From: Minisyncoccota bacterium
GTDB lineage: Bacteria > Patescibacteriota > Minisyncoccia > Phycocordibacterales > UBA9973
Direction: 5' to 3'
Assembly: GCA_035994985.1 (NCBI GenBank)
Contig: DASYKZ010000013.1
Coordinates: 1,834 to 65,833, forward strand
Length of the DNA stretch: 64,000 bases
Shown here: positions 3,473-35,459 of the stretch, piece by piece
Layout: each line of letters starts with the position of its first letter
Position numbering within the stretch: the first letter of the stretch is position 1
Made by a program: the position numbers and the translations under genes
Notes under the pieces: model-generated
Databases searched by the model: none
What the model was told of the DNA's origin: nothing
Seen by the model: only the letters and a program-made list of their open reading frames with translations

Positions 3473-5215
3473 ATGCAAATTTTTTATCATTATTTGAAAA
3501 AATACTGGAAGCTTTGCGCGCTTGTACTTGTTCTTGCGCTGATTAACCAGTTCTTCTCTTTGCTTGAGCCATATATCACCCAACTAATTATCGACAGGTA
3601 CGCCACTCATTTTACTTCGCTTACCAAATCTCAATTTTTAAACGGTGTCGGGCTGCTTATCCTCGCTTTTATTGGCACTGCTCTCATTTCGCGGATCGCG
3701 AAGAACTTTCAGGACTACTATTTAAATACCATCAGCCAGCGTTCTGGCGCAGACATGTATCGGGAGGGCGTAAAACATTCGCTTGCTCTTCCATACGGTA
3801 TTTTTGAAGATGAGCGAAGCGGGGAAACGCTGGGCAAGCTCCAGAAGGCAAGACAAGACACAGAAGCACTCATGGTGGCTATCGTAAATACTGTTTTCAT
3901 CTCTCTTGTCATTTTTATCTTCATCGCTATTTATTCTGCGACGATTTATTGGGCAATTCCGATTGTATTCTTCGCAATGGTGTTTATTATCGGCGGCGTC
4001 AGCCTGCTTATGTCCAAACGAATCAAGAGTATCCAAAACGTAATTGTAGCCGAGACGACAGCGCTCGCTGGCTCAACGACTGAATCGCTTCGCAATATCG
4101 AACTAGTGAAATCTCTCGGTTTGACCGGCCAAGAAGTGGAACGCTTAAATACTACAACAAAAAAAATTCTTAAGCTGGAATTAAAAAAGCTCCGCTATCT
4201 TCGCAGCCTGGACTTCGTACAAGGGACGATTACTAATGCCATACGCGCAGGCATGATTTTCTTTCTTTTATACCTGATTTACAATAGGACTATTACCATC
4301 GGCCAATATTTCTCGCTTAATATTTATTCCTTCTTCTTATTCTTTCCGTTGCAACAAGTTGCGCCTTTTATTTCAATGTACCGCCAGGCTGAGGCTTCGC
4401 TTGCCAATTACAGCAAACTCATGGAAATGCCACCGGAGCCAACGCCAGCTACGCCGAACCCAATTGGCGAAGTGAAAAACCTTGAATTCAAGAATGTTTC
4501 TTTTGGCTATAAATCCACAAATGAAAACGCCCTTTCTAATATTTTTTATAAAATCTCGCGCGGCAACACGATTGCCTTCGTCGGCCCATCCGGTTCTGGC
4601 AAGACATCCTTGGTAAAGTTATTAGTAGGACTGTATGTGCCGACCGAAGGGGAAATATATTTCAACGGTTTTCCATTTGAATCTATTGACAAAGAAGAGC
4701 TCCGCCGGCAAATCGGCTTCGTGACGCAAGACACGCAGCTTTTTGCGGGTACCATACGAGAGAACCTACTTTTCGTAAAGCCGGACGCGACAGACCCCGA
4801 GTGCCTAGATGCCTTGAATAAAGCGCAATGCCAAAACTTACTGGAGAGGGGAGGCAAGGGGCTCGATACTGTTATCGGCGAGGGGGGAGTAAAAGTTTCC
4901 GGCGGGGAAAAGCAGAGGCTCTCCATTGCCCGCGCGCTTCTGCGCCAGCCGTCAATTTTGATATTTGATGAAGCGACGTCGTCCCTCGATTCTTTGACCG
5001 AAGAAGAAATCACCAAAACCATCCGCGACGTGTCTACAGGCCATTCGCGCATTACTATACTCATCGCCCACAGGCTCTCGACGATTATGCACGCAGACAC
5101 TATTTATGTACTTGAAAAAGGCAAAATGACTGAATCAGGTTCGCACGCGGAACTTCTCGGCAAACAAGGGCTGTATTCAGCAATGTGGAGGCAGCAAATA
5201 GGCGAAAGAGCGTAA
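3473..5215 (+). CDS. ABC transporter, fused permease/ATP-binding protein (type I exporter, MsbA-like)
   Basis: 6 N-terminal TM helices; Walker A GPSGSGKTS, signature VSGGEKQRLSIARAL, Walker B ILIFDEATSSLD. Confidence 0.9.
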   Translation: MQIFYHYLKKYWKLCALVLVLALINQFFSLLEPYITQLIIDRYATHFTSLTKSQFLNGVGLLILAFIGTALISRIAKNFQDYYLNTISQRSGADMYREGVKHSLALPYGIFEDERSGETLGKLQKARQDTEALMVAIVNTVFISLVIFIFIAIYSATIYWAIPIVFFAMVFIIGGVSLLMSKRIKSIQNVIVAETTALAGSTTESLRNIELVKSLGLTGQEVERLNTTTKKILKLELKKLRYLRSLDFVQGTITNAIRAGMIFFLLYLIYNRTITIGQYFSLNIYSFFLFFPLQQVAPFISMYRQAEASLANYSKLMEMPPEPTPATPNPIGEVKNLEFKNVSFGYKSTNENALSNIFYKISRGNTIAFVGPSGSGKTSLVKLLVGLYVPTEGEIYFNGFPFESIDKEELRRQIGFVTQDTQLFAGTIRENLLFVKPDATDPECLDALNKAQCQNLLERGGKGLDTVIGEGGVKVSGGEKQRLSIARALLRQPSILIFDEATSSLDSLTEEEITKTIRDVSTGHSRITILIAHRLSTIMHADTIYVLEKGKMTESGSHAELLGKQGLYSAMWRQQIGERA

Positions 5216-5273
5216 GCAGGCGCAAAATAGCTTAAAAAAATTCTGAAAAAGTGTTACACCCTGTAATAGAGTT

Positions 5274-5301
5274 TTGCAAAAACTTCACTACGGGGTACAA
5301 T
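5274..5301 (+). promoter_or_regulatory. sigma70-like promoter TTGCAA-N16-TACAAT placed 7 nt upstream of ATG 5309 (leaderless configuration)
   Basis: TTGCAA 5274-5279, TACAAT 5296-5301. Confidence 0.45.
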
Positions 5302-15428: not shown

Positions 15429-18050
15429 TTACTGACAACTGTCACACAATAAAGCATCTTGAGGGTCTTCAGGCAGATGTATCTTGAGCTTATTAAGAGA
15501 AGGCGCTGGTGTCCCCGCCATAGCGGCAACTGGTGGCGGGGTTGGAGCTTTAACTGTGCTTACAGTATCCATAACTACTTGAGATAAAACCGGGCTGACA
15601 GATTGTGCCTCTGCCAGTTCTTTTTGTTCTGTTTGCATTGGCTGCTTATCTTTTAGCACAGCGAAACCTCTCTTGCCGAGGGCTTCAGCTTTGTTGACCG
15701 AAGTAGTAGATTGTTCAGCGACGTGGCGGGGCTTCATGTGCAAGTAGTATGTGGTCTTGAGCCCCTTGTCCCATGCAGTTGTATAGATATTCATAATTTC
15801 ATTAATGTCGCGGACTTCCAGATACATATTGCGGGAGATTCCCATGTCCACCCATTTCTGCGCCCGGGCCGCTACTTCTATAAAGGCATAAGGGGATACA
15901 GAGAAAGAAGTTTTGTAGATTCTTTTTATATGGTCAGGGATTTCTTCAATATCTGCGAGGTCTCCATGATGTTCAAGGATTTTTTCCCGTGTCGTCTCCC
16001 AAAGATTTTCTGCCTGTAAAGCTTTCATCATGTTTGGGTTTACTTCCAGGTATTTTCCGGAAATTTTATTTCGGGAAAACATTTGGGTAAACCTTGGGTC
16101 GATGCCCGGGCTTGTGCCTGCCACCAGTCCGATATTTGCATTCGGAGCAATCGCGAGCAAGGTAGCGTTCCTGATTCCTTTTTTGACTTTAGAGCGGAGA
16201 GTATCCCAGTCAAGGGCAGGCAATATTCTTGCTGATTCTTTTACTACGGTAAGCTCGCGGTTCCGGTCGTGTTCCAATTTTGCGAGAGTATCCAGAGGCA
16301 CTTCTCCCTTTGACCAGCCAGAACCCTTGAAGTTCTTGTAGCTTCCGCGTTCTTCGGCCATATTTGCGGATTCGTCTATAGACATATAAGAAATAAATTC
16401 AAAGATTTGGTCTGCGAAGTCATATGCGGCGGCATCTTCATATGAATAGCCGAGCTGTTCTATAGAATCCGCGAAACCCATGAGTCCGAGTCCCACAGCC
16501 CTGTTTTCATTGTCAGCCTTAATTGCTTCAGGGATTGGGAGCTTGTTGATATCGACGAGGTTGTCGAGCTGTCGGGTGGCCAGGCGTACGGAATCTTCCA
16601 GCCTATGCCAGTCTATCTGGCCGTCTATGATATGACGGGCCATATTTATGGAAACTAGGTTGCAGACGGCTACATTTTCCCTGTCTGTCGGCAAAGTGAC
16701 TTCGGTGCAGAGGTTGGAACAGTGAATAGTGCCGGTGTTGTTGTTTAAAGCCCTTAAGTTTATGGCATCTTTCCAGGTGAGCCATGGGTGGGAAGTAGTT
16801 TCGAGAGAAATCAAGATGTTTTTGTATTGCTGGCGGGCAGGGATGACTTCATGCATCTTCATACGGCCCGCTTTAGCGAGTTCCACGTATTCATTGTATC
16901 TTTTTGAAAATTCCTTGCCCACTAATTCGTTCAAATCTTGGACTTCGTTTGGGTCAAACAAATACCAATCGTCGCCTTCAAGCACTCTTTTCATAAATTC
17001 ATCTGAAATAAATACCGCAGTATTGGCAGTTCTGGTTCTTCGGTAATCATCTCCATTGTTTTGTTTTAAGTCTAGGAAATCCTGGAAGTTCAAGTGCCAG
17101 TTTTCCATGTAGAAACAGAGGGCGCCTTTTTTCTTGCCGCCCCGCTGCACAGCCCGCACTGCAGAGTCTATTATATGGATGAAAGGCACCGGTCCGGATG
17201 AAACAGTATTGTTTGATTTTAAAACAGAGCCTTCGGCACGGAGCTTGGTGACTGAAAGCCCGATGCCGCCCGTTGCCTTGGACAGCAAGAGTACATCAGA
17301 TACGGTCTTGCCGATGTGTTCCATGTCATCATGAATTTCCATCAAGAAACAATTTGAAAGCTTTGGATTCGGAGTGCCGGCGCCGATGTTTGAACTTCCA
17401 GCAGACAAATATTCCAGCTTGGACATTTTATTGTAAAACTTTTTCGCCCACTCGTTTGGGTTTTTTTCATTCAAAGACATGCCCATAGCCACTCTCATCC
17501 AAAAATACTGGGGAGTCTCTAGCGGAGCCTGCTTCTCATTTTTCATCAGGTAGCGGTTTTGCATCGTAGAGAGCCCGGAGTATTTATATAGTTCATCGTT
17601 TTCTACTTTCAAATCTTTTGCCAAATCATCAAGGTCGAAAGTCGTAGCCATTCTCGTGTCGAGAAGGCCCCTGTCGACTGCATCCATTACGTATTCCTTG
17701 AAATGCTTGCTGTGCAGCTTTGAAAATTCCTCTTCGCTTACAGTTTTTGACTCATCATTGTCGTAATCTCCTATGACTTTTTTGTAAATTACCTTCAAAA
17801 GCAGGCGGGTAGCTATTTTGTCGAATTCTTCGCCGTATTGCGCGTTTTGCAGGGCAGCGTTTATGGTCGCTGCGTCCATTTCTTCGGTAGTGATGCCGTC
17901 ATATAGAGTGAGCTGGGTCTCTGTAGCTATCTGTATAACCTTACTAATCGGATCCTTTAGCCCATAACATGCTCTTTCAATAGATTTGTTGATGCGGTTT
18001 GCATCGAAAGGCATTTTTGTGCCGTCTCTTTTAGTAATAGTTATATTCAT
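15429..18050 (-). CDS. nrdA: class I ribonucleotide reductase large (R1/alpha) subunit with N-terminal ATP-cone
   Basis: ATP-cone (ITKRDGTKMPFDANRINKSIERA), catalytic N/C/E core (CSNLCTE), C-terminal CDSC redox pair. Confidence 0.9.
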   Translation of the reverse strand: MNITITKRDGTKMPFDANRINKSIERACYGLKDPISKVIQIATETQLTLYDGITTEEMDAATINAALQNAQYGEEFDKIATRLLLKVIYKKVIGDYDNDESKTVSEEEFSKLHSKHFKEYVMDAVDRGLLDTRMATTFDLDDLAKDLKVENDELYKYSGLSTMQNRYLMKNEKQAPLETPQYFWMRVAMGMSLNEKNPNEWAKKFYNKMSKLEYLSAGSSNIGAGTPNPKLSNCFLMEIHDDMEHIGKTVSDVLLLSKATGGIGLSVTKLRAEGSVLKSNNTVSSGPVPFIHIIDSAVRAVQRGGKKKGALCFYMENWHLNFQDFLDLKQNNGDDYRRTRTANTAVFISDEFMKRVLEGDDWYLFDPNEVQDLNELVGKEFSKRYNEYVELAKAGRMKMHEVIPARQQYKNILISLETTSHPWLTWKDAINLRALNNNTGTIHCSNLCTEVTLPTDRENVAVCNLVSINMARHIIDGQIDWHRLEDSVRLATRQLDNLVDINKLPIPEAIKADNENRAVGLGLMGFADSIEQLGYSYEDAAAYDFADQIFEFISYMSIDESANMAEERGSYKNFKGSGWSKGEVPLDTLAKLEHDRNRELTVVKESARILPALDWDTLRSKVKKGIRNATLLAIAPNANIGLVAGTSPGIDPRFTQMFSRNKISGKYLEVNPNMMKALQAENLWETTREKILEHHGDLADIEEIPDHIKRIYKTSFSVSPYAFIEVAARAQKWVDMGISRNMYLEVRDINEIMNIYTTAWDKGLKTTYYLHMKPRHVAEQSTTSVNKAEALGKRGFAVLKDKQPMQTEQKELAEAQSVSPVLSQVVMDTVSTVKAPTPPPVAAMAGTPAPSLNKLKIHLPEDPQDALLCDSCQ

Positions 18051-26401: not shown

Positions 26402-26758
26402 ATGGATTCATTTACTTCACCGACCACAAAGCCATTGTACCGGGGCACGCAAGTCGTCTGGTATATCTTAGGTGTCTTGGAAATTTTATTGGCCTTTCGT
26501 TTTGCCCTAAAATTACTGGCGGCAAATCCAAATGCCGGATTTAGCAATTTTATTTATAAAGTTACCTATATTTTCGCAGCTCCATTTCTAAACGTATTTC
26601 AAATAAGCAGGGTAGAGGGCAGTATTTTTGAATGGACTACCATTCTTGCCATGCTCGTATATTGGCTCGTCGCCTGGGGCATCATCAAAATATTTCTTAT
26701 GAGCAAGAGCGTGTCCACTCCAGAAGCGGCAGTCAAACTGGAAAATCAGGAAAAATAA
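26402..26758 (+). CDS. YggT family membrane protein (paralog 1)
   Basis: LAFRFALKLLAANPNAGFSNFIYKVT..PFL YggT signature. Confidence 0.65.
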   Translation: MDSFTSPTTKPLYRGTQVVWYILGVLEILLAFRFALKLLAANPNAGFSNFIYKVTYIFAAPFLNVFQISRVEGSIFEWTTILAMLVYWLVAWGIIKIFLMSKSVSTPEAAVKLENQEK

Positions 26759-28296: not shown

Positions 28297-28324
28297 AACC
28301 TTATTTAAAAAAGATACATAGGTT

Positions 28325-28376
28325 ACTTGTCAATTACTTGACAATTAAATATAGATTGGTTTACAATTGGTTTACA
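28325..28376 (+). promoter_or_regulatory. operator-like repeats upstream of island gene: imperfect inverted repeat ACTTGTCAA/TTGACAAT plus tandem perfect 11-mer ATTGGTTTACA x2
   Basis: 28355-28365 and 28366-28376 identical; TACAAT -10-like element embedded. Confidence 0.45.
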
Positions 28377-28380
28377 ATCT

Positions 28381-29430
28381 ATGTTAACAAAAACCGAAAT
28401 ATTAAAAATAGCGAAAGAGAAGGATAAACTTTACTCTAAGGATTTAGTGTTGCAGTTTAAGGTCTCTAGGCAATATGTTAATCTTTTGATATCCATGCTA
28501 GTCGGAGAGCGTAAACTTGTAAAAATCGGCTCTACAAGAAAAGCATTTTACGTTCTTCCTGAATACGCACAAAAACATCAAGAAATATTTCCGCTTATAT
28601 ATTCTAAATCATTTAAAAATGAGGGACTTGAAGAGCATAGAGTTATAAGTCAAATAGAAGAGACTTTCCCGACATTAAAAAATCTTCCAGAAAACATACG
28701 TAGTATTTTTACCTATGCGTTTTCAGAAATGTTTAACAATGCAATTGAGCACTCCAAATCTGTGCGTATAGGGGTAGAAGTATCTATCCCTAAAAAAGAA
28801 CTTTCTTTCATTATACAAGACTCAGGCATAGGCGTTTTTCGTAACGTTATGAAGGAGCGAGGTCTAAAGTCTGAAATAGAAGCAATTCAAGATATTTTAA
28901 AAGGAAAGACGACAACTATGCCCAAATCTCATTCAGGTGAAGGTATATTTTTTACGTCAAAGTCTGGAGATGTTTTTATTCTCGATAGTTTTGGTTATCA
29001 ATTAATTGTAAATAATAAGACACCAGATGTTTTCATAAAGACTGTTAGAAAAATAAAAAGAGGCACTCGGGTAATGTTTAAAATCTCTGCTTTATCAGAT
29101 AGACATTTACAAGATGTTTTTAAAAAATATACAAACCTAGATGATAAAAGTGATTATGGTTTTGACAAGACGGAAATAAGAGTGAAACTTTATACTATTG
29201 GCGGTGTCCATATTTCTCGTTCACAAGCACGGCGAGTCTTAGACGGTCTTGAAAAATTCAAGATAATTGTTTTTGATTTTGAGCAAGTTTCTACGGTAGG
29301 ACAGGCATTTGCTGATGAAGTTTTTAGAGTTTTTCATCATAAATATCCAAAGATTAAGCTTGAAGTAGAAAATATGAATGAGGGGGTAAAATTTATGATT
29401 GAAAGAGCACAGAATGAAGCTTCCATATAA
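28381..29430 (+). CDS. wHTH - GHKL (histidine-kinase-like) ATPase - STAS-like (DUF4325-like) fusion protein
   Basis: N-box FNNAIEHS, G1 DSGIGV, G2 GEGIFF; C-terminal STAS-like segment; N-terminal winged helix. Confidence 0.6.
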   Translation: MLTKTEILKIAKEKDKLYSKDLVLQFKVSRQYVNLLISMLVGERKLVKIGSTRKAFYVLPEYAQKHQEIFPLIYSKSFKNEGLEEHRVISQIEETFPTLKNLPENIRSIFTYAFSEMFNNAIEHSKSVRIGVEVSIPKKELSFIIQDSGIGVFRNVMKERGLKSEIEAIQDILKGKTTTMPKSHSGEGIFFTSKSGDVFILDSFGYQLIVNNKTPDVFIKTVRKIKRGTRVMFKISALSDRHLQDVFKKYTNLDDKSDYGFDKTEIRVKLYTIGGVHISRSQARRVLDGLEKFKIIVFDFEQVSTVGQAFADEVFRVFHHKYPKIKLEVENMNEGVKFMIERAQNEASI

Positions 29431-29447
29431 GTATTAAAATTATAAAC

Positions 29448-30074
29448 ATGCCACACATTTTATTACATATTACTGACCCGGAAAAGATTTACTCAGAAAT
29501 TTCAAAAGCCCTTTTACCGCACAAGGAAAAAGAGGTTGCTTCCATGGTCTTTATCGTCGAAGGTTCTCTCGAAAATCCACGAATCGCCATACGATATCCC
29601 GGCAGAAAATTAGTAAAGAGAAACCTCACCTATCCGAGGGCAAACTCATCCCTATGGGCAAATCTTCTTGATTTTGAAGTGATTCCTTTCAATCAAGGTG
29701 AACAAGGAAACTCTAAAATTTTTACGTACGCAAATTTACTTAAAGACTTTGAGCTGTATAAAAAAGATAATAATCTTTTTTGGCAGATGCTGGAGGAACT
29801 ATATAATAAAAATACGATTACCAAAGAGCCACCAAAGCTTGAGGGTATAGACTCAAGACAATTTTTAGAAATGCTCAAATGGATGTGGCTTCAGGAAGAT
29901 TTAAATTACAAATTGTCTTGGCAGGAAGTCGGCTCTGAAATACCATATAGACTTCAAAATAAAACAGGAGGTCTTACCAGCAAGGGTGCCGGACGTGCAA
30001 AATTTTTTGCCGCTCTTGTTCTACTTAAAAACAATTACTTTGATTATAATACTGTTAGAAAAATAATACCTTAA
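29448..30074 (+). CDS. hypothetical protein, 208 aa (candidate restriction endonuclease partner of convergent MTase)
   Basis: Stop codon overlaps stop of convergent MTase gene by 4 nt; no recognisable motif. Confidence 0.45.
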   Translation: MPHILLHITDPEKIYSEISKALLPHKEKEVASMVFIVEGSLENPRIAIRYPGRKLVKRNLTYPRANSSLWANLLDFEVIPFNQGEQGNSKIFTYANLLKDFELYKKDNNLFWQMLEELYNKNTITKEPPKLEGIDSRQFLEMLKWMWLQEDLNYKLSWQEVGSEIPYRLQNKTGGLTSKGAGRAKFFAALVLLKNNYFDYNTVRKIIP

Positions 30075-31171
30075 GCTATTTTCTTGCCGCGCGGCCCTAG
30101 TTTATGAGTTTCGTCTATATAGCCCTTTTTTAAACGGTCATTTATGATGTCGCAATATTTTTTATCAATTTCTGCAGATATAAAGTTGCGATTCAGTTTT
30201 TTACAAACATCTATTTCTGCACCGCTCCCGCCAAAGAGAACAAAGACTGTATCTTTTGGCTTCGTCGCCCCTTTGATTAGCATCTCCGTCAATTTCTGAG
30301 GAATTTGGCAGGCGTGATTAGTTTTTTCTTTACTTACATTTTTTACCAGATTAAATTCAAACCAAGAGTACGGCATCCTGCCCTTGGAGCCATTTGCTAT
30401 ATTTTGCTTTACTCTTTTGTCCGTCGGATTTTTATAAGGAAGCGCCACAGCATCTTTGAAAAATTTATTGTGAGCACTTTTCCGTACGTGTAAAATACTT
30501 CGATGAGCTGTGGTAAATCTCCTCGGCGTATGTCCTACGTTTGTATTGTACACCCAGACATATTCATTGATATTTGGAAAAAGTAAATCAAGATACTTCA
30601 CCCGCAAGTGCGCATTCTGCTTGGGGTAATTGAGCATAAAAAGATTACCATCGGGCTTGAGGACACGCATAGACTCTTTAGTTAACTCTATATACCAGTT
30701 TATATAATCTTCAAATTTTCTAGTGTAATTATTTTCATTGTACTTTATGCCTACATTGTAATCAGGATCACCAAAAATCATATCTACACTGTTGTCTGGT
30801 AAATTTTTTAAAACGTGCATGACATCTCCGTTGTAAACTTTGTTCAAGTAATCAGATACTTTACCTTTTTCTTTCAAGTTATTTTTAACGGGCAGTATGA
30901 AGCCTGGAGTAACCATAGTATCTTGCTGTGACATTAAGTCCTTCATTGATTTCAATAGACGAATTGAGTGTTTTACACCTTTTTCTTTTACCAGATAGCC
31001 TTTCCTTTCTAAATAATCTACGTGTTGGTGCGCAGTAGGGATAGATACATTAAAATGACCTGCTATGTCACTTAAAGCAGGGGAATAGCTGTTTTTTTGT
31101 TGGAATTTATCCAAGTAATCAAAAAGCTGCGCTTGTTTTTTTGTAAGTTGTGAGTTTAATATTTTTGACAT
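30071..31171 (-). CDS. beta-class N4-cytosine/N6-adenine DNA methyltransferase with N-terminal LexA-like wHTH
   Basis: Motif IV variant MIFGDPDYN precedes motif I VLFGGSGAE (beta permutation); HTH SDIAGHFNVSIPTAHQHVDYLERKGYL; alternative upstream start 31228. Confidence 0.8.
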   Translation of the reverse strand: MSKILNSQLTKKQAQLFDYLDKFQQKNSYSPALSDIAGHFNVSIPTAHQHVDYLERKGYLVKEKGVKHSIRLLKSMKDLMSQQDTMVTPGFILPVKNNLKEKGKVSDYLNKVYNGDVMHVLKNLPDNSVDMIFGDPDYNVGIKYNENNYTRKFEDYINWYIELTKESMRVLKPDGNLFMLNYPKQNAHLRVKYLDLLFPNINEYVWVYNTNVGHTPRRFTTAHRSILHVRKSAHNKFFKDAVALPYKNPTDKRVKQNIANGSKGRMPYSWFEFNLVKNVSKEKTNHACQIPQKLTEMLIKGATKPKDTVFVLFGGSGAEIDVCKKLNRNFISAEIDKKYCDIINDRLKKGYIDETHKLGPRGKKIA

Positions 31172-31177
31172 ATATGT

Positions 31178-31227
31178 ACTGTATATTATAATACCTAAAC
31201 ATAACCTAAACAAGAGGTTTATCCACA
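31178..31227 (-). promoter_or_regulatory. MTase promoter/operator: TATAAT -10, direct repeats GTTTAGGT x2, and a perfect DnaA box TTATCCACA (31219-31227)
   Basis: Minus-strand reading: ttgtggataaacctcttGTTTAGGTtatGTTTAGGTatTATAATatacagtacatataATG. Confidence 0.45.
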
Positions 31228-31331
31228 AGAACAGGATTAAAAAGCACTGAAGCTCAATTAAGATGGTTGCGGTAGGGGGGGATTGAAGTTATAGAGTTTT
31301 TTAAGTATAATTCATAAAGCGAAATAATTTA

Positions 31332-33185
31332 ATGCGATATATAGGAAATAAGACAAGACTAATTAACAACATATCTGATTTTGTTAAAGATAATAATATA
31401 AAAGGTAAATCTTTTTGTGATATTTTTTCGGGCACAGGCAGCGTGAGTGATTTTTTTAAATCAGATTATAAGATAATAGCGAACGATTTCTTATTTTGTT
31501 CAGCAGTAATAACAAGAGCCAAAATATATAATAACAAGGAACCGAAATTTAAAAAATTTGTAGATAAATATGGGATAGACCCATTTAATTATTTTAGAAA
31601 TAAAACACATATTTACAAAAAACATTATTTTGTTACAAATAACTATTCACCAAAAGCAAATCGTAAATTTTTTTCCGAAGAAAACTCTATTGCGATAGAC
31701 TCGATTAGAATTGAAATTGAAGAAATTTATAAAAATTTTATTTTTGATGAGAAAGAGTATTATTTTTTGTTGGGAAGTTTGCTGGAAAGTGTAATGAGTT
31801 TTTCTAATACAAGTGGTACCTATGAAGCATTTCTCAAAACATGGGACAAAAGAGCTCTAAAAAAGTTTTTTTTATCTCCAATTAAAATCAATGAAACTAA
31901 GGTTGTAAATGTTGATAATAAAGTATATAACGAAGACGCTAATTCTTTAATTAGAAAAATTGGTGGCGATGTGCTGTACATAGACCCCCCTTACACAATT
32001 ACAGAATATTCATCTGCTTATCATGTATTAGAAACTATTGCTCGTTATGATTATCCTGAAGTAGCTGGAATTACTGCACGCAGAATAGATAATGATAAAA
32101 AATCATCTTATACAAGAGTAAAGACTGCACTCATGTCTTTCGAAGATTTAATAAGACAAGCTCAGTTTAACGATATAATCATAAGTTATAGCAATCAGTC
32201 AATTATACCCTTAAAAGAATTAGAAAAAATGTTATCTCGTTATTCTATAGATGGAAAAATTAACAAAAAACTTATTAATTATAGAGAGTATAGAAACATC
32301 CGCTCAAGCAAAAAAACTCCAGGATTGTTTGAGGTTTTAATTCATATTAAGAAGAACAATGAAATTATTAAGTCTCCCTTGAATTATTCTGGAAGCAAAG
32401 ATAATTTAATGAATCAAATTCATAAGTACTTACCGGAACATATAACCACTTTTGTTGATGTGATGGGAGGAGCTTTTAATGTAGGGGTAAATATTATTGC
32501 TGATGAAGTTATTTATAATGAGTACAATCCTTTTGTTTATGAATTGATAAAAAAATTATTGAAATCAAATTCAAAAGAAACTATAAAATATATAGAAAAT
32601 AAAATTAGTATACATTCCTTAAAGAAAGGTAACTCACTAAAGTATAATATTTTCAGAAATATATATAACAAATCTAAAAAATCGTTAGATTTGTTTATTC
32701 TAACAACCTTTTGTTTTCAAAATCAAATACGGTTTAATTCGTCTCTAGATTTCAATACACCAGTTGGGAATTGTGCGTATAACTCGACTATTCGAGATAG
32801 GCTTGAAAAATTCAAACCAAAAACAAAAAAAATAAGATTTTTAAATGAAGATTTTTTGAAGATAAATTTTAATAAATACGACAAAGAAATATTATTTTAT
32901 TTTGATCCACCTTATTTTATTACTAATGCAACCTATAATGATGGAAAAAGGGGATTTAATGGTTGGGATGCAGATTTAGAGGCAAAAATGTTAGAATACA
33001 TTTCAGCTGTTCATAATGGCGGTTTCAGATTTATTCTATCAAACATTTTATACCATAAGAATAAAGAAAATCATTTATTATTAGAATGGATAGAGTCACA
33101 CAATTTTAACATTGTTGAATTACAACACCCCACTCGAAAGGAGGTTTTAATTACTAACTATAATTTAAATAATGGTATAAGATAA
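31332..33185 (+). CDS. fused tandem Dam-like (D12-class) N6-adenine DNA methyltransferase (two complete MTase domains in one polypeptide)
   Basis: Domain 1: YIGNKTRL..FSGTGSV and IDPPY; domain 2: YSGSKDNL..MGGAFNVG and FDPPY. Confidence 0.8.
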   Translation: MRYIGNKTRLINNISDFVKDNNIKGKSFCDIFSGTGSVSDFFKSDYKIIANDFLFCSAVITRAKIYNNKEPKFKKFVDKYGIDPFNYFRNKTHIYKKHYFVTNNYSPKANRKFFSEENSIAIDSIRIEIEEIYKNFIFDEKEYYFLLGSLLESVMSFSNTSGTYEAFLKTWDKRALKKFFLSPIKINETKVVNVDNKVYNEDANSLIRKIGGDVLYIDPPYTITEYSSAYHVLETIARYDYPEVAGITARRIDNDKKSSYTRVKTALMSFEDLIRQAQFNDIIISYSNQSIIPLKELEKMLSRYSIDGKINKKLINYREYRNIRSSKKTPGLFEVLIHIKKNNEIIKSPLNYSGSKDNLMNQIHKYLPEHITTFVDVMGGAFNVGVNIIADEVIYNEYNPFVYELIKKLLKSNSKETIKYIENKISIHSLKKGNSLKYNIFRNIYNKSKKSLDLFILTTFCFQNQIRFNSSLDFNTPVGNCAYNSTIRDRLEKFKPKTKKIRFLNEDFLKINFNKYDKEILFYFDPPYFITNATYNDGKRGFNGWDADLEAKMLEYISAVHNGGFRFILSNILYHKNKENHLLLEWIESHNFNIVELQHPTRKEVLITNYNLNNGIR

Positions 33186-33190
33186 CAAAT

Positions 33191-34552
33191 ATGGAAGAAA
33201 ATATACTTAAAATAAATAAAAAATTTTACGACTCACTAAGTGAAGGTGATAACAAGAAAGTATTAAAAATTTATGGATATAACTCGCCAGACGAATTCTT
33301 ATCTGGCGTAATTAGTAAGTTGAATGAGGAATACAGTTTCTTGAAAATAAATAAGTTTAATTTTTTATCTACTGAGGAGATCGTCGACTATCATACATAC
33401 AACGGATTTATTAGTGGTAAATTTGTTGATTATGATTTAATCACAGTATCCTTTACTACAATAAAAGGTAAAGAAGGAAATGTGTTTATGAGTCAGCAAG
33501 TTATGCCGATGATAACGAGTAAGTTAAAAAATGATAAAAAATTTATATTGAGCAATAGAGTAAAGAAAATATGCTTACTAACAACACATAAATCTGATAT
33601 TTACTCACCTGACAAGAATATAATAACTGATAGTGGTATTTCAAATATTCAGATGAGTGTTAAATATATAAATACGATAGGCTTTGACATAGTTGATATT
33701 TTCCATATTAAGAACCTAAGCACGAAATCAAGATACTATAATATCGATGAATTAATTGATCACTCAAATTATTTACAGAAAAAAAATCCAACAAACTCAC
33801 AATTTCAACAAATAACAAAAAAAGATTATGTATATAGTGCTGATTTTGAAAATGAACCAGTTGGACAAGAAGTTAAATTTTTTGCCTTAAAATTATATGC
33901 AGCAGTTATTTTATTAAAAGGCAGAAATATCCATATTGATAATGCATTACAGAAAAGCAATGATATTACTCTGCAGGTTTTAAATGATTTTATTCAATAT
34001 CTCTTAAACATTGATATATCTTTATACAATATATTCAAGGATTTATCCGAAGAAATAGAATATGAGACAGAAATTGACACAAGTACAATGCCTGAAGAAG
34101 CAGTTAGACCTAAAAAAGATGATTCCATGCCTGGTCATAAACAACAACCAATATATAGCTTTAATGCAAAAGGACGAAAAATATACAAAACACAAAGAAT
34201 ATTCAAAAAGAATGCATTTGAAATTCATGGTTATTTTTGTGCTTGCCATGAAGAAAAACATTATTATTTCACATCTGAGGCAACTAATAAAAAATACGTT
34301 GAGGGTCATCACATGATACCAATGGAGTTCCAAGATCAATATTGGAAAGATAGGCAAATTAATCTTGATTGCACTATTAATTTAATTCCACTTTGCTCTC
34401 ATTGTCATGGGAAAATACATAAGTCCATTAAACCTGAACGAGTGCAGATAATCACAGAAGTTTATAATAAACACAAAGATCAACTACTTACAATAGATAG
34501 TAAACTTACATTTGATAAGTTCGCAGAACTCTATAACGTCTATATTTACTAA
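33191..34552 (+). CDS. putative restriction endonuclease with C-terminal HNH nuclease domain
   Basis: YVEGHHMIP...NLIPLCSHCHGKIH HNH motif; large N-terminal putative recognition domain; immediately downstream of MTase. Confidence 0.7.
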   Translation: MEENILKINKKFYDSLSEGDNKKVLKIYGYNSPDEFLSGVISKLNEEYSFLKINKFNFLSTEEIVDYHTYNGFISGKFVDYDLITVSFTTIKGKEGNVFMSQQVMPMITSKLKNDKKFILSNRVKKICLLTTHKSDIYSPDKNIITDSGISNIQMSVKYINTIGFDIVDIFHIKNLSTKSRYYNIDELIDHSNYLQKKNPTNSQFQQITKKDYVYSADFENEPVGQEVKFFALKLYAAVILLKGRNIHIDNALQKSNDITLQVLNDFIQYLLNIDISLYNIFKDLSEEIEYETEIDTSTMPEEAVRPKKDDSMPGHKQQPIYSFNAKGRKIYKTQRIFKKNAFEIHGYFCACHEEKHYYFTSEATNKKYVEGHHMIPMEFQDQYWKDRQINLDCTINLIPLCSHCHGKIHKSIKPERVQIITEVYNKHKDQLLTIDSKLTFDKFAELYNVYIY

Positions 34553-34638
34553 AATCGTAGGAGTATTTTAATTGTTTTAATTTTTAAATAAGTTTCAACA
34601 TTGCCCCAAACTCTCAACAACTATGCTAAAATTATTCA

Positions 34639-35111: not shown

Positions 35112-35459
35112 ATGAATTCTTATAATTATATAACTACAGAAGAAAAAGTTTACGACGAAGGGCTGGTCACCTGGTATCTCCTTGATTTGGTCCAGCTTCT
35201 TTTAATATTCCGCTTCTTCTTAAAGCTTGCCGGCGCAAACCCTGTCGGCATGTTTACGAATTTTATTTATCAGGTTACAAATGTGCTCGTCTCTCCGTTT
35301 GTCGGCATTGCAAACTCCATATCCATACAAAATGCCGGAGTGTTTGAGTGGAGTTCTTTCTTTGCCATATTTGTGTATTATCTCGTGGCTGTAGCTATAA
35401 TCAGGCTCTTTTTTACGAGCAGAGTAGTCTCGCTGCACCAGCAGGCCCAAGTAAAATAA
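35112..35459 (+). CDS. YggT family membrane protein (paralog 2)
   Basis: LIFRFFLKLAGANPVGMFTNFIYQVTNVLVSPFV. Confidence 0.65.
   Translation: MNSYNYITTEEKVYDEGLVTWYLLDLVQLLLIFRFFLKLAGANPVGMFTNFIYQVTNVLVSPFVGIANSISIQNAGVFEWSSFFAIFVYYLVAVAIIRLFFTSRVVSLHQQAQVK

Follow-up and report, generated by a model that had tools for sequence, protein, structure and literature searches.

A small protein of an unnamed family as candidate restriction enzyme beside a LexA-type DNA methyltransferase in a Patescibacteria bin

What does a small gene do that runs tail to tail into a DNA methyltransferase (MTase) gene, when no named family claims its product? The question is raised by a stretch of 64,000 nucleotides (nt) of contig DASYKZ010000013.1 (assembly GCA_035994985.1, positions 1,834 to 65,833), here called the window, and by its protein of 208 amino acids (aa), on record from a Candidatus Paceibacterota bin. 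Our comparative analysis makes it quite probable that this protein is the presumably catalytic restriction component (R) of a Type II restriction-modification (R-M) module. Support for this reading comes mainly from comparative context, not from a catalytic signature. A preliminary description of the locus had proposed a candidate restriction endonuclease (REase), and the proposal is now supported by linkage to MTases, by controller genes, by decay of R beside intact MTases and by exchange of the R slot with a recognised REase family. The gene pair comprises the following features.

29448-30074, + strand: gene of the candidate restriction enzyme, product 208 aa, from an unnamed family with lengths of about 210 aa (open reading frame, homologues, AlphaFold model)
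30071-31171, - strand: partner DNA methyltransferase gene (M), 366 aa (PF01555, PF01726, PADLOC MTase_II PDLC03337, NCBI record P0207)
30071-30074: TTAA common to both convergent genes, holding the stop of R, and the stop of M together with the last base of R's final sense codon

The candidate R gene is an ATG-started open reading frame (ORF) of 208 codons closed by TAA at 30072-30074, and the stop codon of the convergent gene, also TAA, reads TTA on the + strand at 30071-30073. The start at 29448, the length and the stop codon had been given correctly in the preliminary description, and only the end at 30077 lay 3 nt beyond the stop. The tail-to-tail overlap of 4 nt described there is likewise confirmed. 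Since an overlap of 4-41 nt between the 3' ends of R and a convergent MTase partner recurs in 21 of 25 related loci, the one in the window is not a matter of chance.

Linkage to DNA methyltransferases

The convergent gene encodes a DNA MTase, as previously proposed, with matches to Pfam PF01555 N6_N4_Mtase (E 3.9e-36) and to PADLOC MTase_II PDLC03337 (E 2.5e-118). Its likely start is the ATG at 31171, which yields the 366-aa protein of NCBI record P0207, and not the TTG at 31228 of the mechanical 385-aa ORF. Four features can be placed on it.

30140-30787, - strand: beta-class N6_N4 MTase catalytic domain, motif IV before motif I (PF01555)
30758-30769, - strand: MTase motif IV, DPDY, residue 135 of the 366-aa protein
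30221-30235, - strand: S-adenosylmethionine (AdoMet) motif I, FGGSG, residue 313 of the 366-aa protein
30989-31153, - strand: N-terminal DNA-binding domain, a winged helix of LexA type (PF01726), covering residues 26-80 in the 385-aa ORF

The enzyme belongs to the beta class because DPDY comes before FGGSG. Its nearest solved relatives are the N6-adenine enzymes M.BceJIV, M.MboIIA, M.RsrI and CcrM, and the leading Asp of the motif, DPDY and not DPPY, suggests that it probably methylates N6-adenine and not N4-cytosine. The N-terminal domain matches PF01726 LexA_DNA_bind (E 2.2e-8), TIGR00498 lexA (E 6.2e-9) and the LexA structure 3k2z in the PDB (E 2.8e-7), and was aligned with E. coli LexA.

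We fetched 36 loci with a homologue of the small gene and mapped the small gene and the MTase in them. An N6_N4 MTase adjoins the intact small gene in all 24 distinct loci with readable flanks (23 fetched plus the window), in both convergent and co-directional gene orders, and an intact R without a neighbouring MTase was found in none of the loci mapped. The hosts are Patescibacteria, Elusimicrobia, Planctomycetales, Omnitrophica, DPANN archaea and Methanosarcinales. At least four architectures occur among the partners: the window type, convergent and with a LexA-type N-terminus, whose catalytic domain is 69-89% identical; a stand-alone MTase of 265-315 aa with 45-48% identity (L028, L036); in archaeal loci (L002, L016, L027), a co-directional upstream MTase about 610 aa long; and a permuted MTase of 388 aa (L020, L033). 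Thus, the small protein tracks DNA methylation as such and not one partner polypeptide. In the Woesearchaeota locus L020 an additional ORF of 224 aa (4625-5299, + strand), without family match, lies between the intact R homologue and the 388-aa MTase.

Other features of the related loci are those of R-M modules. In seven loci (L005-L009, L013, L032) an ORF of 71-73 aa of the HTH_3 (helix-turn-helix, HTH) family ends 4-16 nt ahead of the R start; its PDB matches are C.BclI and C.AhdI, both controller proteins. In three archaeal loci (L016, L020, L027) a small winged-helix gene occupies the controller position. R is frameshifted or truncated in L025, L027, L030, L032 and L035, which are metagenome bins in which some of the disruptions may be assembly errors; the neighbouring MTase is intact in L025, L027, L030 and L035, that of L032 being interrupted where the contig ends. 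L031 and L033 retain no more than remnants of the small gene.

The MTase also occurs with other partners. Its family counts 2820 clusters at E up to 1e-40, about ten times the small-protein family, and its members are mostly stand-alone enzymes of 275-295 aa with 65-75% identity. Among the neighbours sampled, MTases 65-81% identical to the window's adjoin other occupants of the R slot, listed here with the MTase they accompany.

L124:2210-2998, L125:2219-2998, L126:711-1490: DUF6996/DUF6997 genes, adjoining the MTase, upstream
L121:3347-3997, L123:2347-2997, + strand: 216-aa sister ORFs, ending 4 nt before a related MTase

In the three DUF6996/DUF6997 loci the protein is encoded directly upstream of MTases 68-70% identical to the window's, and it matches the PADLOC Type II REase model REase_II PDLC03513 (1.5e-13); a 99-aa remnant of such a protein lies at 3698-3997 of L118. 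Given this slot and this match, DUF6996 and DUF6997, listed in Pfam as domains of unknown function, appear to form a restriction enzyme. It holds the same slot as the small protein beside such similar MTases and is therefore likely an isoschizomer family of it, although the two are unrelated in sequence (hhalign probability 0.2%) and the DUF6996/DUF6997 proteins are longer (259-262 aa) and co-directional, upstream of M. The 216-aa ORFs, on the other hand, are distant homologues of the small protein (hmmsearch 27 bits; hhalign probability 88%, E 2.9e-6 over residues 16-154; about 20% identity), linked to the MTase and retaining the core invariant residues. They differ in being co-directional, with their end 4 nt before M, and in having neither the G-R-x-K loop nor the E38 position. 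Since database searches with the family profile all missed this sister group, the superfamily is wider than the clusters counted below. A 232-aa ORF convergent with the MTase of L120 was considered as a further relative and rejected (hhalign probability 2.6%, not significant).

A Thermus phage carries an MTase 66% identical to the window's catalytic domain without the small partner protein. One MTase type with interchangeable slot occupants, a recognised REase family among them, and a phage MTase on its own, is the expected behaviour of an R-M module. The phage is the jumbo phage phiLo (L117, MH673673.1; MTase at 16851-17606); around the MTase lie a transposase and small genes whose annotation reads putative restriction endonuclease, none of them a homologue of the 208-aa protein.

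The protein family and its predicted structure

The small protein had been called an orphan, which does not hold. A word-indexed search of 5.8 billion proteins returned 235 homologous clusters at 90% identity, a number that rose to 258 with a profile search, and exhaustive phmmer against 1.84 billion 50%-identity representatives gave 39 matching clusters; the protein is merely without a named family. The clusters listed by the word-indexed search measure 203-247 aa (nearly all 207-215) and are 55-68% identical to the window protein, the range over both searches of the 5.8 billion proteins being 50-68%. All matches make up one narrow family without fusions and without names, whose members every source labels hypothetical. 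The bacterial relatives stem from many Patescibacteria lineages, Elusimicrobia, Planctomycetales, Omnitrophica and Acidobacteriota, and the archaeal ones from DPANN (Woese-, Pace-, Aenigmat- and Iainarchaeota), Methanosarcinales and Bathyarchaeia. Between copies from bacteria and those from archaea the identity is 55-57%, a sign of lateral transfer. Carriage by mobile elements was considered and rejected, as no homologue occurs in the plasmid, phage and IMG/VR collections.

The AlphaFold2 model of the 208-aa protein, built on a 21-sequence alignment, is very confident (mean predicted local distance difference test score 94.9, predicted template modelling score 0.91). Its N-terminal part is of alpha/beta type (beta-alpha-beta-beta) and comprises, in order, a short strand, helix 11-25, a hairpin of strands 33-39 and 44-50, a long loop and strand 77-82; its C-terminal part is helical (94-105, 109-121, 136-154, 158-161, 183-194 and 200-206), so that more than half of the predicted layout is helix. 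Seventeen residues are invariant in the family (V37, Y50, P51, G52, D75, F76, D100, K105, F111, W112, G133, W145, E150, N153, Y154, Y167 and G182), and Y50, P51, D75, F76, D100, W112, G133, W145, E150 and Y154 remain so once the 216-aa sister group is added. Five conserved segments can be placed on the gene.

29595-29603, + strand: Y50-P51-G52, invariant in the family, where the second strand of the beta hairpin ends (alignments A1 and A3)
29670-29675, + strand: D75-F76, invariant also in the sister group, at the start of strand 77-82 (alignments)
29745-29762, + strand: D100-F-E-L-Y-K105 on helix 94-105, D100 invariant including the sister group and K105 within the family
29880-29909, + strand: W145-M-W-L-Q-E150-D151-L-N-Y154, family signature ending helix 136-154; W145, E150 and Y154 invariant including the sister group
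29991-30002, + strand: G182-R183-A-K185, glycine-rich loop capping helix 183-194 (alignments, model); not kept in the sister group

The signature W145-Y154 served as a search pattern and retrieved 30 genome loci. The window copy is a full-length ORF with all the invariant and nearly invariant family residues in place. As candidate nuclease residues we would propose D75, D100, E150 and D151, together with Y50, Y154 and K105. D75 is a candidate metal ligand, and as a working proposal D75, D100, E150 and D151 would form a putative metal site where the two halves of the protein meet, while the loop G-R-x-K at 182-185 may contact backbone phosphates of the DNA.

Which fold this is was approached by structure prediction followed by a fold search, as the preliminary description had suggested. 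The model is confident, yet the search returned neither a nuclease fold nor a confident non-nuclease fold, nor any match whatever. The earlier remark that no PD-(D/E)xK or HNH motif is visible holds in Pfam and in the family alignments. The known folds were each rejected. Membership of the PD-(D/E)XK superfamily is contradicted by the lack of a conserved strand-borne (D/E)xK, the invariant D75 lying at a strand start and D100 and E150 on helices. Both HNH and phospholipase D chemistry are argued against by the absence of any invariant His or Cys: the former, the beta-beta-alpha-Me nuclease, also finds no Pfam HNH match, and the latter, of BfiI type, would need the invariant His of HxK(x)4D. 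The likeness of FIVEG...IRYPG to a GIY-YIG nuclease is superficial, given that the first Tyr is missing, that no helix with a conserved Arg follows and that neither Pfam nor Foldseek gives a match. The half-pipe fold of PabI matches in neither Pfam, PDB sequences nor Foldseek, and the model is more than half helical. Finally, KGAGRAKFFAAL resembles by eye the hairpin of EndoIII, a helix-hairpin-helix assignment that we rejected because the model has no helix before the loop, the fold search yielded no helix-hairpin-helix protein and the sister group does not share the motif.

The restriction reading and its rivals

Several lines of evidence other than linkage and decay count in favour of a restriction component, among them the fact that acidic and aromatic residues persist unchanged as far as the sister group, and the position of the R-M pair in a low-GC island within a housekeeping region. 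Being small, encoded separately and free of methyltransferase, helicase and ATPase domains in Pfam, NCBIfam and PADLOC, the protein is unlike enzymes of Types I, III, IIG and IV; it would presumably behave as a dimeric Type IIP enzyme. Depletion of GATC in carrier loci is also counted for this reading, with the reservation that it is confounded by taxonomy and by other R-M systems. Against 80 control loci around gyrA of close Paceibacterota relatives, and over 237 palindromic patterns, GATC is the most depleted palindrome of the carriers, with an observed/expected ratio (O/E) of 0.36 versus 0.68 (0.37 in Patescibacteria carriers only, Mann-Whitney p 4e-4). The whole window holds 35 GATC sites where 161 are expected (29 versus 145 outside the island), and its O/E of 0.22 is below those of all 78 controls with enough expected sites (median 0.65, minimum 0.24). 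CTAG is second, with 0.64 in carriers and 0.95 in controls. GATC is the leading candidate recognition sequence, if weakly so; adenine methylation, as the leading Asp of motif IV would imply, seems to fit GATC better than the known N4-methylcytosine systems acting on CTAG. Neither CTTAAG, which occurs at the gene junction, nor TTAA is depleted, and the same is true of GTWWAC (1.04), the site of M.BceJIV, the closest solved MTase.

A mechanism can be proposed on these grounds. The MTase would mark a short sequence of the host DNA, and the small protein, probably as a homodimer, would attack the same sequence where it arrives unmethylated on incoming DNA. The LexA-type winged helix of the MTase probably represses the promoter of its own gene, and the expression of R would in many relatives be delayed by a small controller protein, whose gene directly precedes R; the R of the window, without such a gene, may be transcribed by read-through from the gene ahead of it.

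A number of results weigh against the restriction reading. We infer nuclease activity from context only: the 208-aa protein matches nothing in Pfam, NCBIfam, PADLOC, PHROGs or the PDB with single-sequence and profile queries, the PD-(D/E)XK and RE_* models of Pfam match none of 21 family members even with the E limit raised to 10, Foldseek searches of the PDB with the full model and with residues 1-125 gave no hit, nuclease or other, and the family alignments, as said, hold no invariant His or Cys. No controller gene of the kind seen in relatives precedes R in the window, and the stretch directly upstream of R gave no clear promoter. Part of the R decay may, as mentioned, be an artefact of metagenome assembly, and the depletion of GATC and CTAG is confounded, since the controls are one narrow clade in which GATC is already low (0.68) and the window contains a second R-M-like pair.

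How do other explanations fare against the same evidence? A variant would keep restriction and change the chemistry, the protein acting as a base-excision glycosylase/AP-lyase like PabI or inflicting other damage than phosphodiester cleavage. The missing His and Cys, the absence of motifs of the four metal or covalent nuclease classes and the unmatched fold would agree with it, the invariant Asp, Glu and Tyr would suit a glycosylase too, and PabI itself offers the precedent of a new fold with base excision discovered through R-M context (PMC10273834, PMC1874622). Yet similarity to PabI is not seen in Pfam, PDB sequences or Foldseek, the predicted structure is alpha/beta plus helical and not a half-pipe sheet, and the three invariant carboxylates suit metal-dependent hydrolysis equally well; we regard this variant as quite unlikely. 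More improbable still is a non-catalytic accessory of the MTase, be it a DNA-binding factor for specificity or regulation or a protein that reads the methylation status. A regulator would explain the unrecognised catalytic motif and the tight translational/transcriptional coupling to the MTase, and the glycine-rich G-R-x-K loop hints at binding to the DNA backbone. Such a helper, however, would join modules that already possess HTH regulators (the controller-type gene, the LexA-type domain, the small winged helix), would have to pair with four unrelated MTase architectures, and would see its place taken by a recognised REase family beside near-identical MTases; the phage copy of the MTase works without it, and repeated inactivation of R beside an intact MTase fits a toxic gene better than a helper.

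The third alternative concerns the window copy only, which could be a silent or inactive relic beside a solitary MTase, even if the family may still be a restriction enzyme. Decay of R is common in the family, the window MTase has lost the S24 domain present in most relatives, and R has neither an upstream controller, the preceding gene ending 17 nt before its ATG, nor a strong promoter directly upstream. Nonetheless, the ORF is full length with all invariant and nearly invariant residues, a promoter-like site matching 11 of 12 positions at 28338-28367 could provide read-through, and loci with intact R (L001, L010, L017 and L018) also lack a controller, so that we hold a relic to be unlikely. 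The restriction reading is thus the one we retain.

If the protein is a restriction component, how does it relate to known systems? It most resembles the controller-regulated Type IIP systems (PvuII, BamHI and BglII; control by C.AhdI, C.BclI and C.Esp1396I), which share a small stand-alone R beside a beta-class N6_N4 MTase, often convergent, and to which correspond the HTH_3 gene of about 72 aa immediately upstream of R in relatives, matching C.BclI and C.AhdI, and the location of the present module in a low-GC island. It differs in that R has no sequence or Foldseek similarity to any solved REase, BamHI, BglII and PvuII included, and no PD-(D/E)XK, in that the window has no controller and in that the MTase bears a LexA-type domain. 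Autoregulating Type II MTases with an N-terminal HTH are known from the SsoII, EcoRII and MspI type, which are C5-cytosine enzymes. With these the present MTase shares a DNA-binding domain fused at its N-terminus, and some loci here lack a controller; but the domain is of LexA type and in most relatives is accompanied by the complete self-cleaving S24 domain. The partner of PabI is an N6-adenine methyltransferase, as is probably the one here. PabI, too, was recognised from its R-M context and not from homology, without match to earlier nuclease folds, and the review of its family lists the same signs of toxicity, namely R decay, replacement by non-homologous genes and site avoidance (PMC10273834). 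There is, however, no similarity of sequence or fold, a beta-alpha-beta-beta part plus helices here standing against a curved sheet in PabI.

Type II restriction enzymes use five catalytic folds, and Orlowski and Bujnicki left 56 characterised and 521 predicted enzymes unassigned, naming them priority targets (PMC2441816). The R-M system itself is of a known kind; its R protein, from an undescribed family, has at present no place among the five restriction folds. A very confident model, no detectable solved relative and clean genomic evidence make it a well-defined candidate for a new restriction fold, possibly a tool of new specificity. A further step would be to see here a sixth structural and catalytic class, with a new alpha/beta-plus-helical fold, a His-free site of D75, D100, E150 and D151 plus Tyr, maybe non-canonical chemistry, and a spread across ultra-small bacteria and archaea, mostly with a LexA-fused damage-responsive MTase; this we put forward as a tentative possibility, rather doubtful at present. 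Patescibacteria and DPANN archaea are episymbionts that depend on scavenged DNA and nucleotides, and one R-M module is seen moving between them.

LexA fusions and the genomic setting

In about 19 of 21 related loci a complete LexA repressor (winged helix plus Peptidase_S24, E 4.9e-30) forms one polypeptide with the MTase.

L001:5608-7074, L005:5633-7123 and most of L007-L030, - strand: LexA-MTase fusions (winged helix plus Peptidase_S24)

The fusion protein of L001 is 489 aa long. The fusions keep the Ala-Gly cleavage region (LPLLGIIAAG), the catalytic Ser (GDSM or GNSM) and the Lys (TLK), while the S24 part has been lost from the window MTase and from L026; in L120 LexA is a separate gene directly upstream of the MTase. 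Judged from sequence, the fusion suggests a control of R-M that is responsive to DNA damage, that is, linked to the SOS response. Neither a LexA-MTase fusion nor a link between SOS and R-M turned up in a literature search, and an operator search upstream of the MTase gave only weak AT-rich palindromes, none conserved between loci.

The pair lies in an island of distinct composition.

28300-34600: low-GC island of about 6.3 kilobases, GC 0.26-0.37 versus 0.44-0.46 in the flanks (composition profile)

Around it the chromosome segment encodes ribonucleotide reductase, RNase J, SecA, GyrA and Mur ligases, and the island itself contains the R-M pair, the gene upstream of R and a second R-M-like pair. 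The upstream gene (28381-29430, + strand) specifies 349 aa and ends 17 nt before the R ATG; its product has an HTH-like N-terminal region, a weak HATPase_c match and a C-terminal STAS-like DUF4325 (E 4.1e-15), and it is absent from all related loci. The promoter-like site at 28338-28367, the nearest good one, lies ahead of this gene. Two small membrane-protein paralogues (26402-26758 and 35112-35459, both + strand; 42% identity, E 3e-24) flank the island at a distance of a few genes on each side; they are too divergent to be a recent target duplication.

The second R-M-like pair (31332-34552, + strand; GC 0.26-0.28, lower than in the first pair) begins with an MTase of 617 aa made of two fused D12-class (Dam-like) domains (PADLOC PDLC03287, E 3.4e-204), followed 6 nt later by a 453-aa protein with a weak C-terminal HNH_2 match (E 0.014) and no PADLOC match. 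A sequence matching the sigma-70 consensus at 12 of 12 positions (TTGACA, 16 nt, TATAAT) at 31165-31192 on the + strand spans the start codon of the LexA-type MTase and is directed at the double-D12 MTase gene at 31332. By its placement, the two MTase genes have face-to-face start regions.

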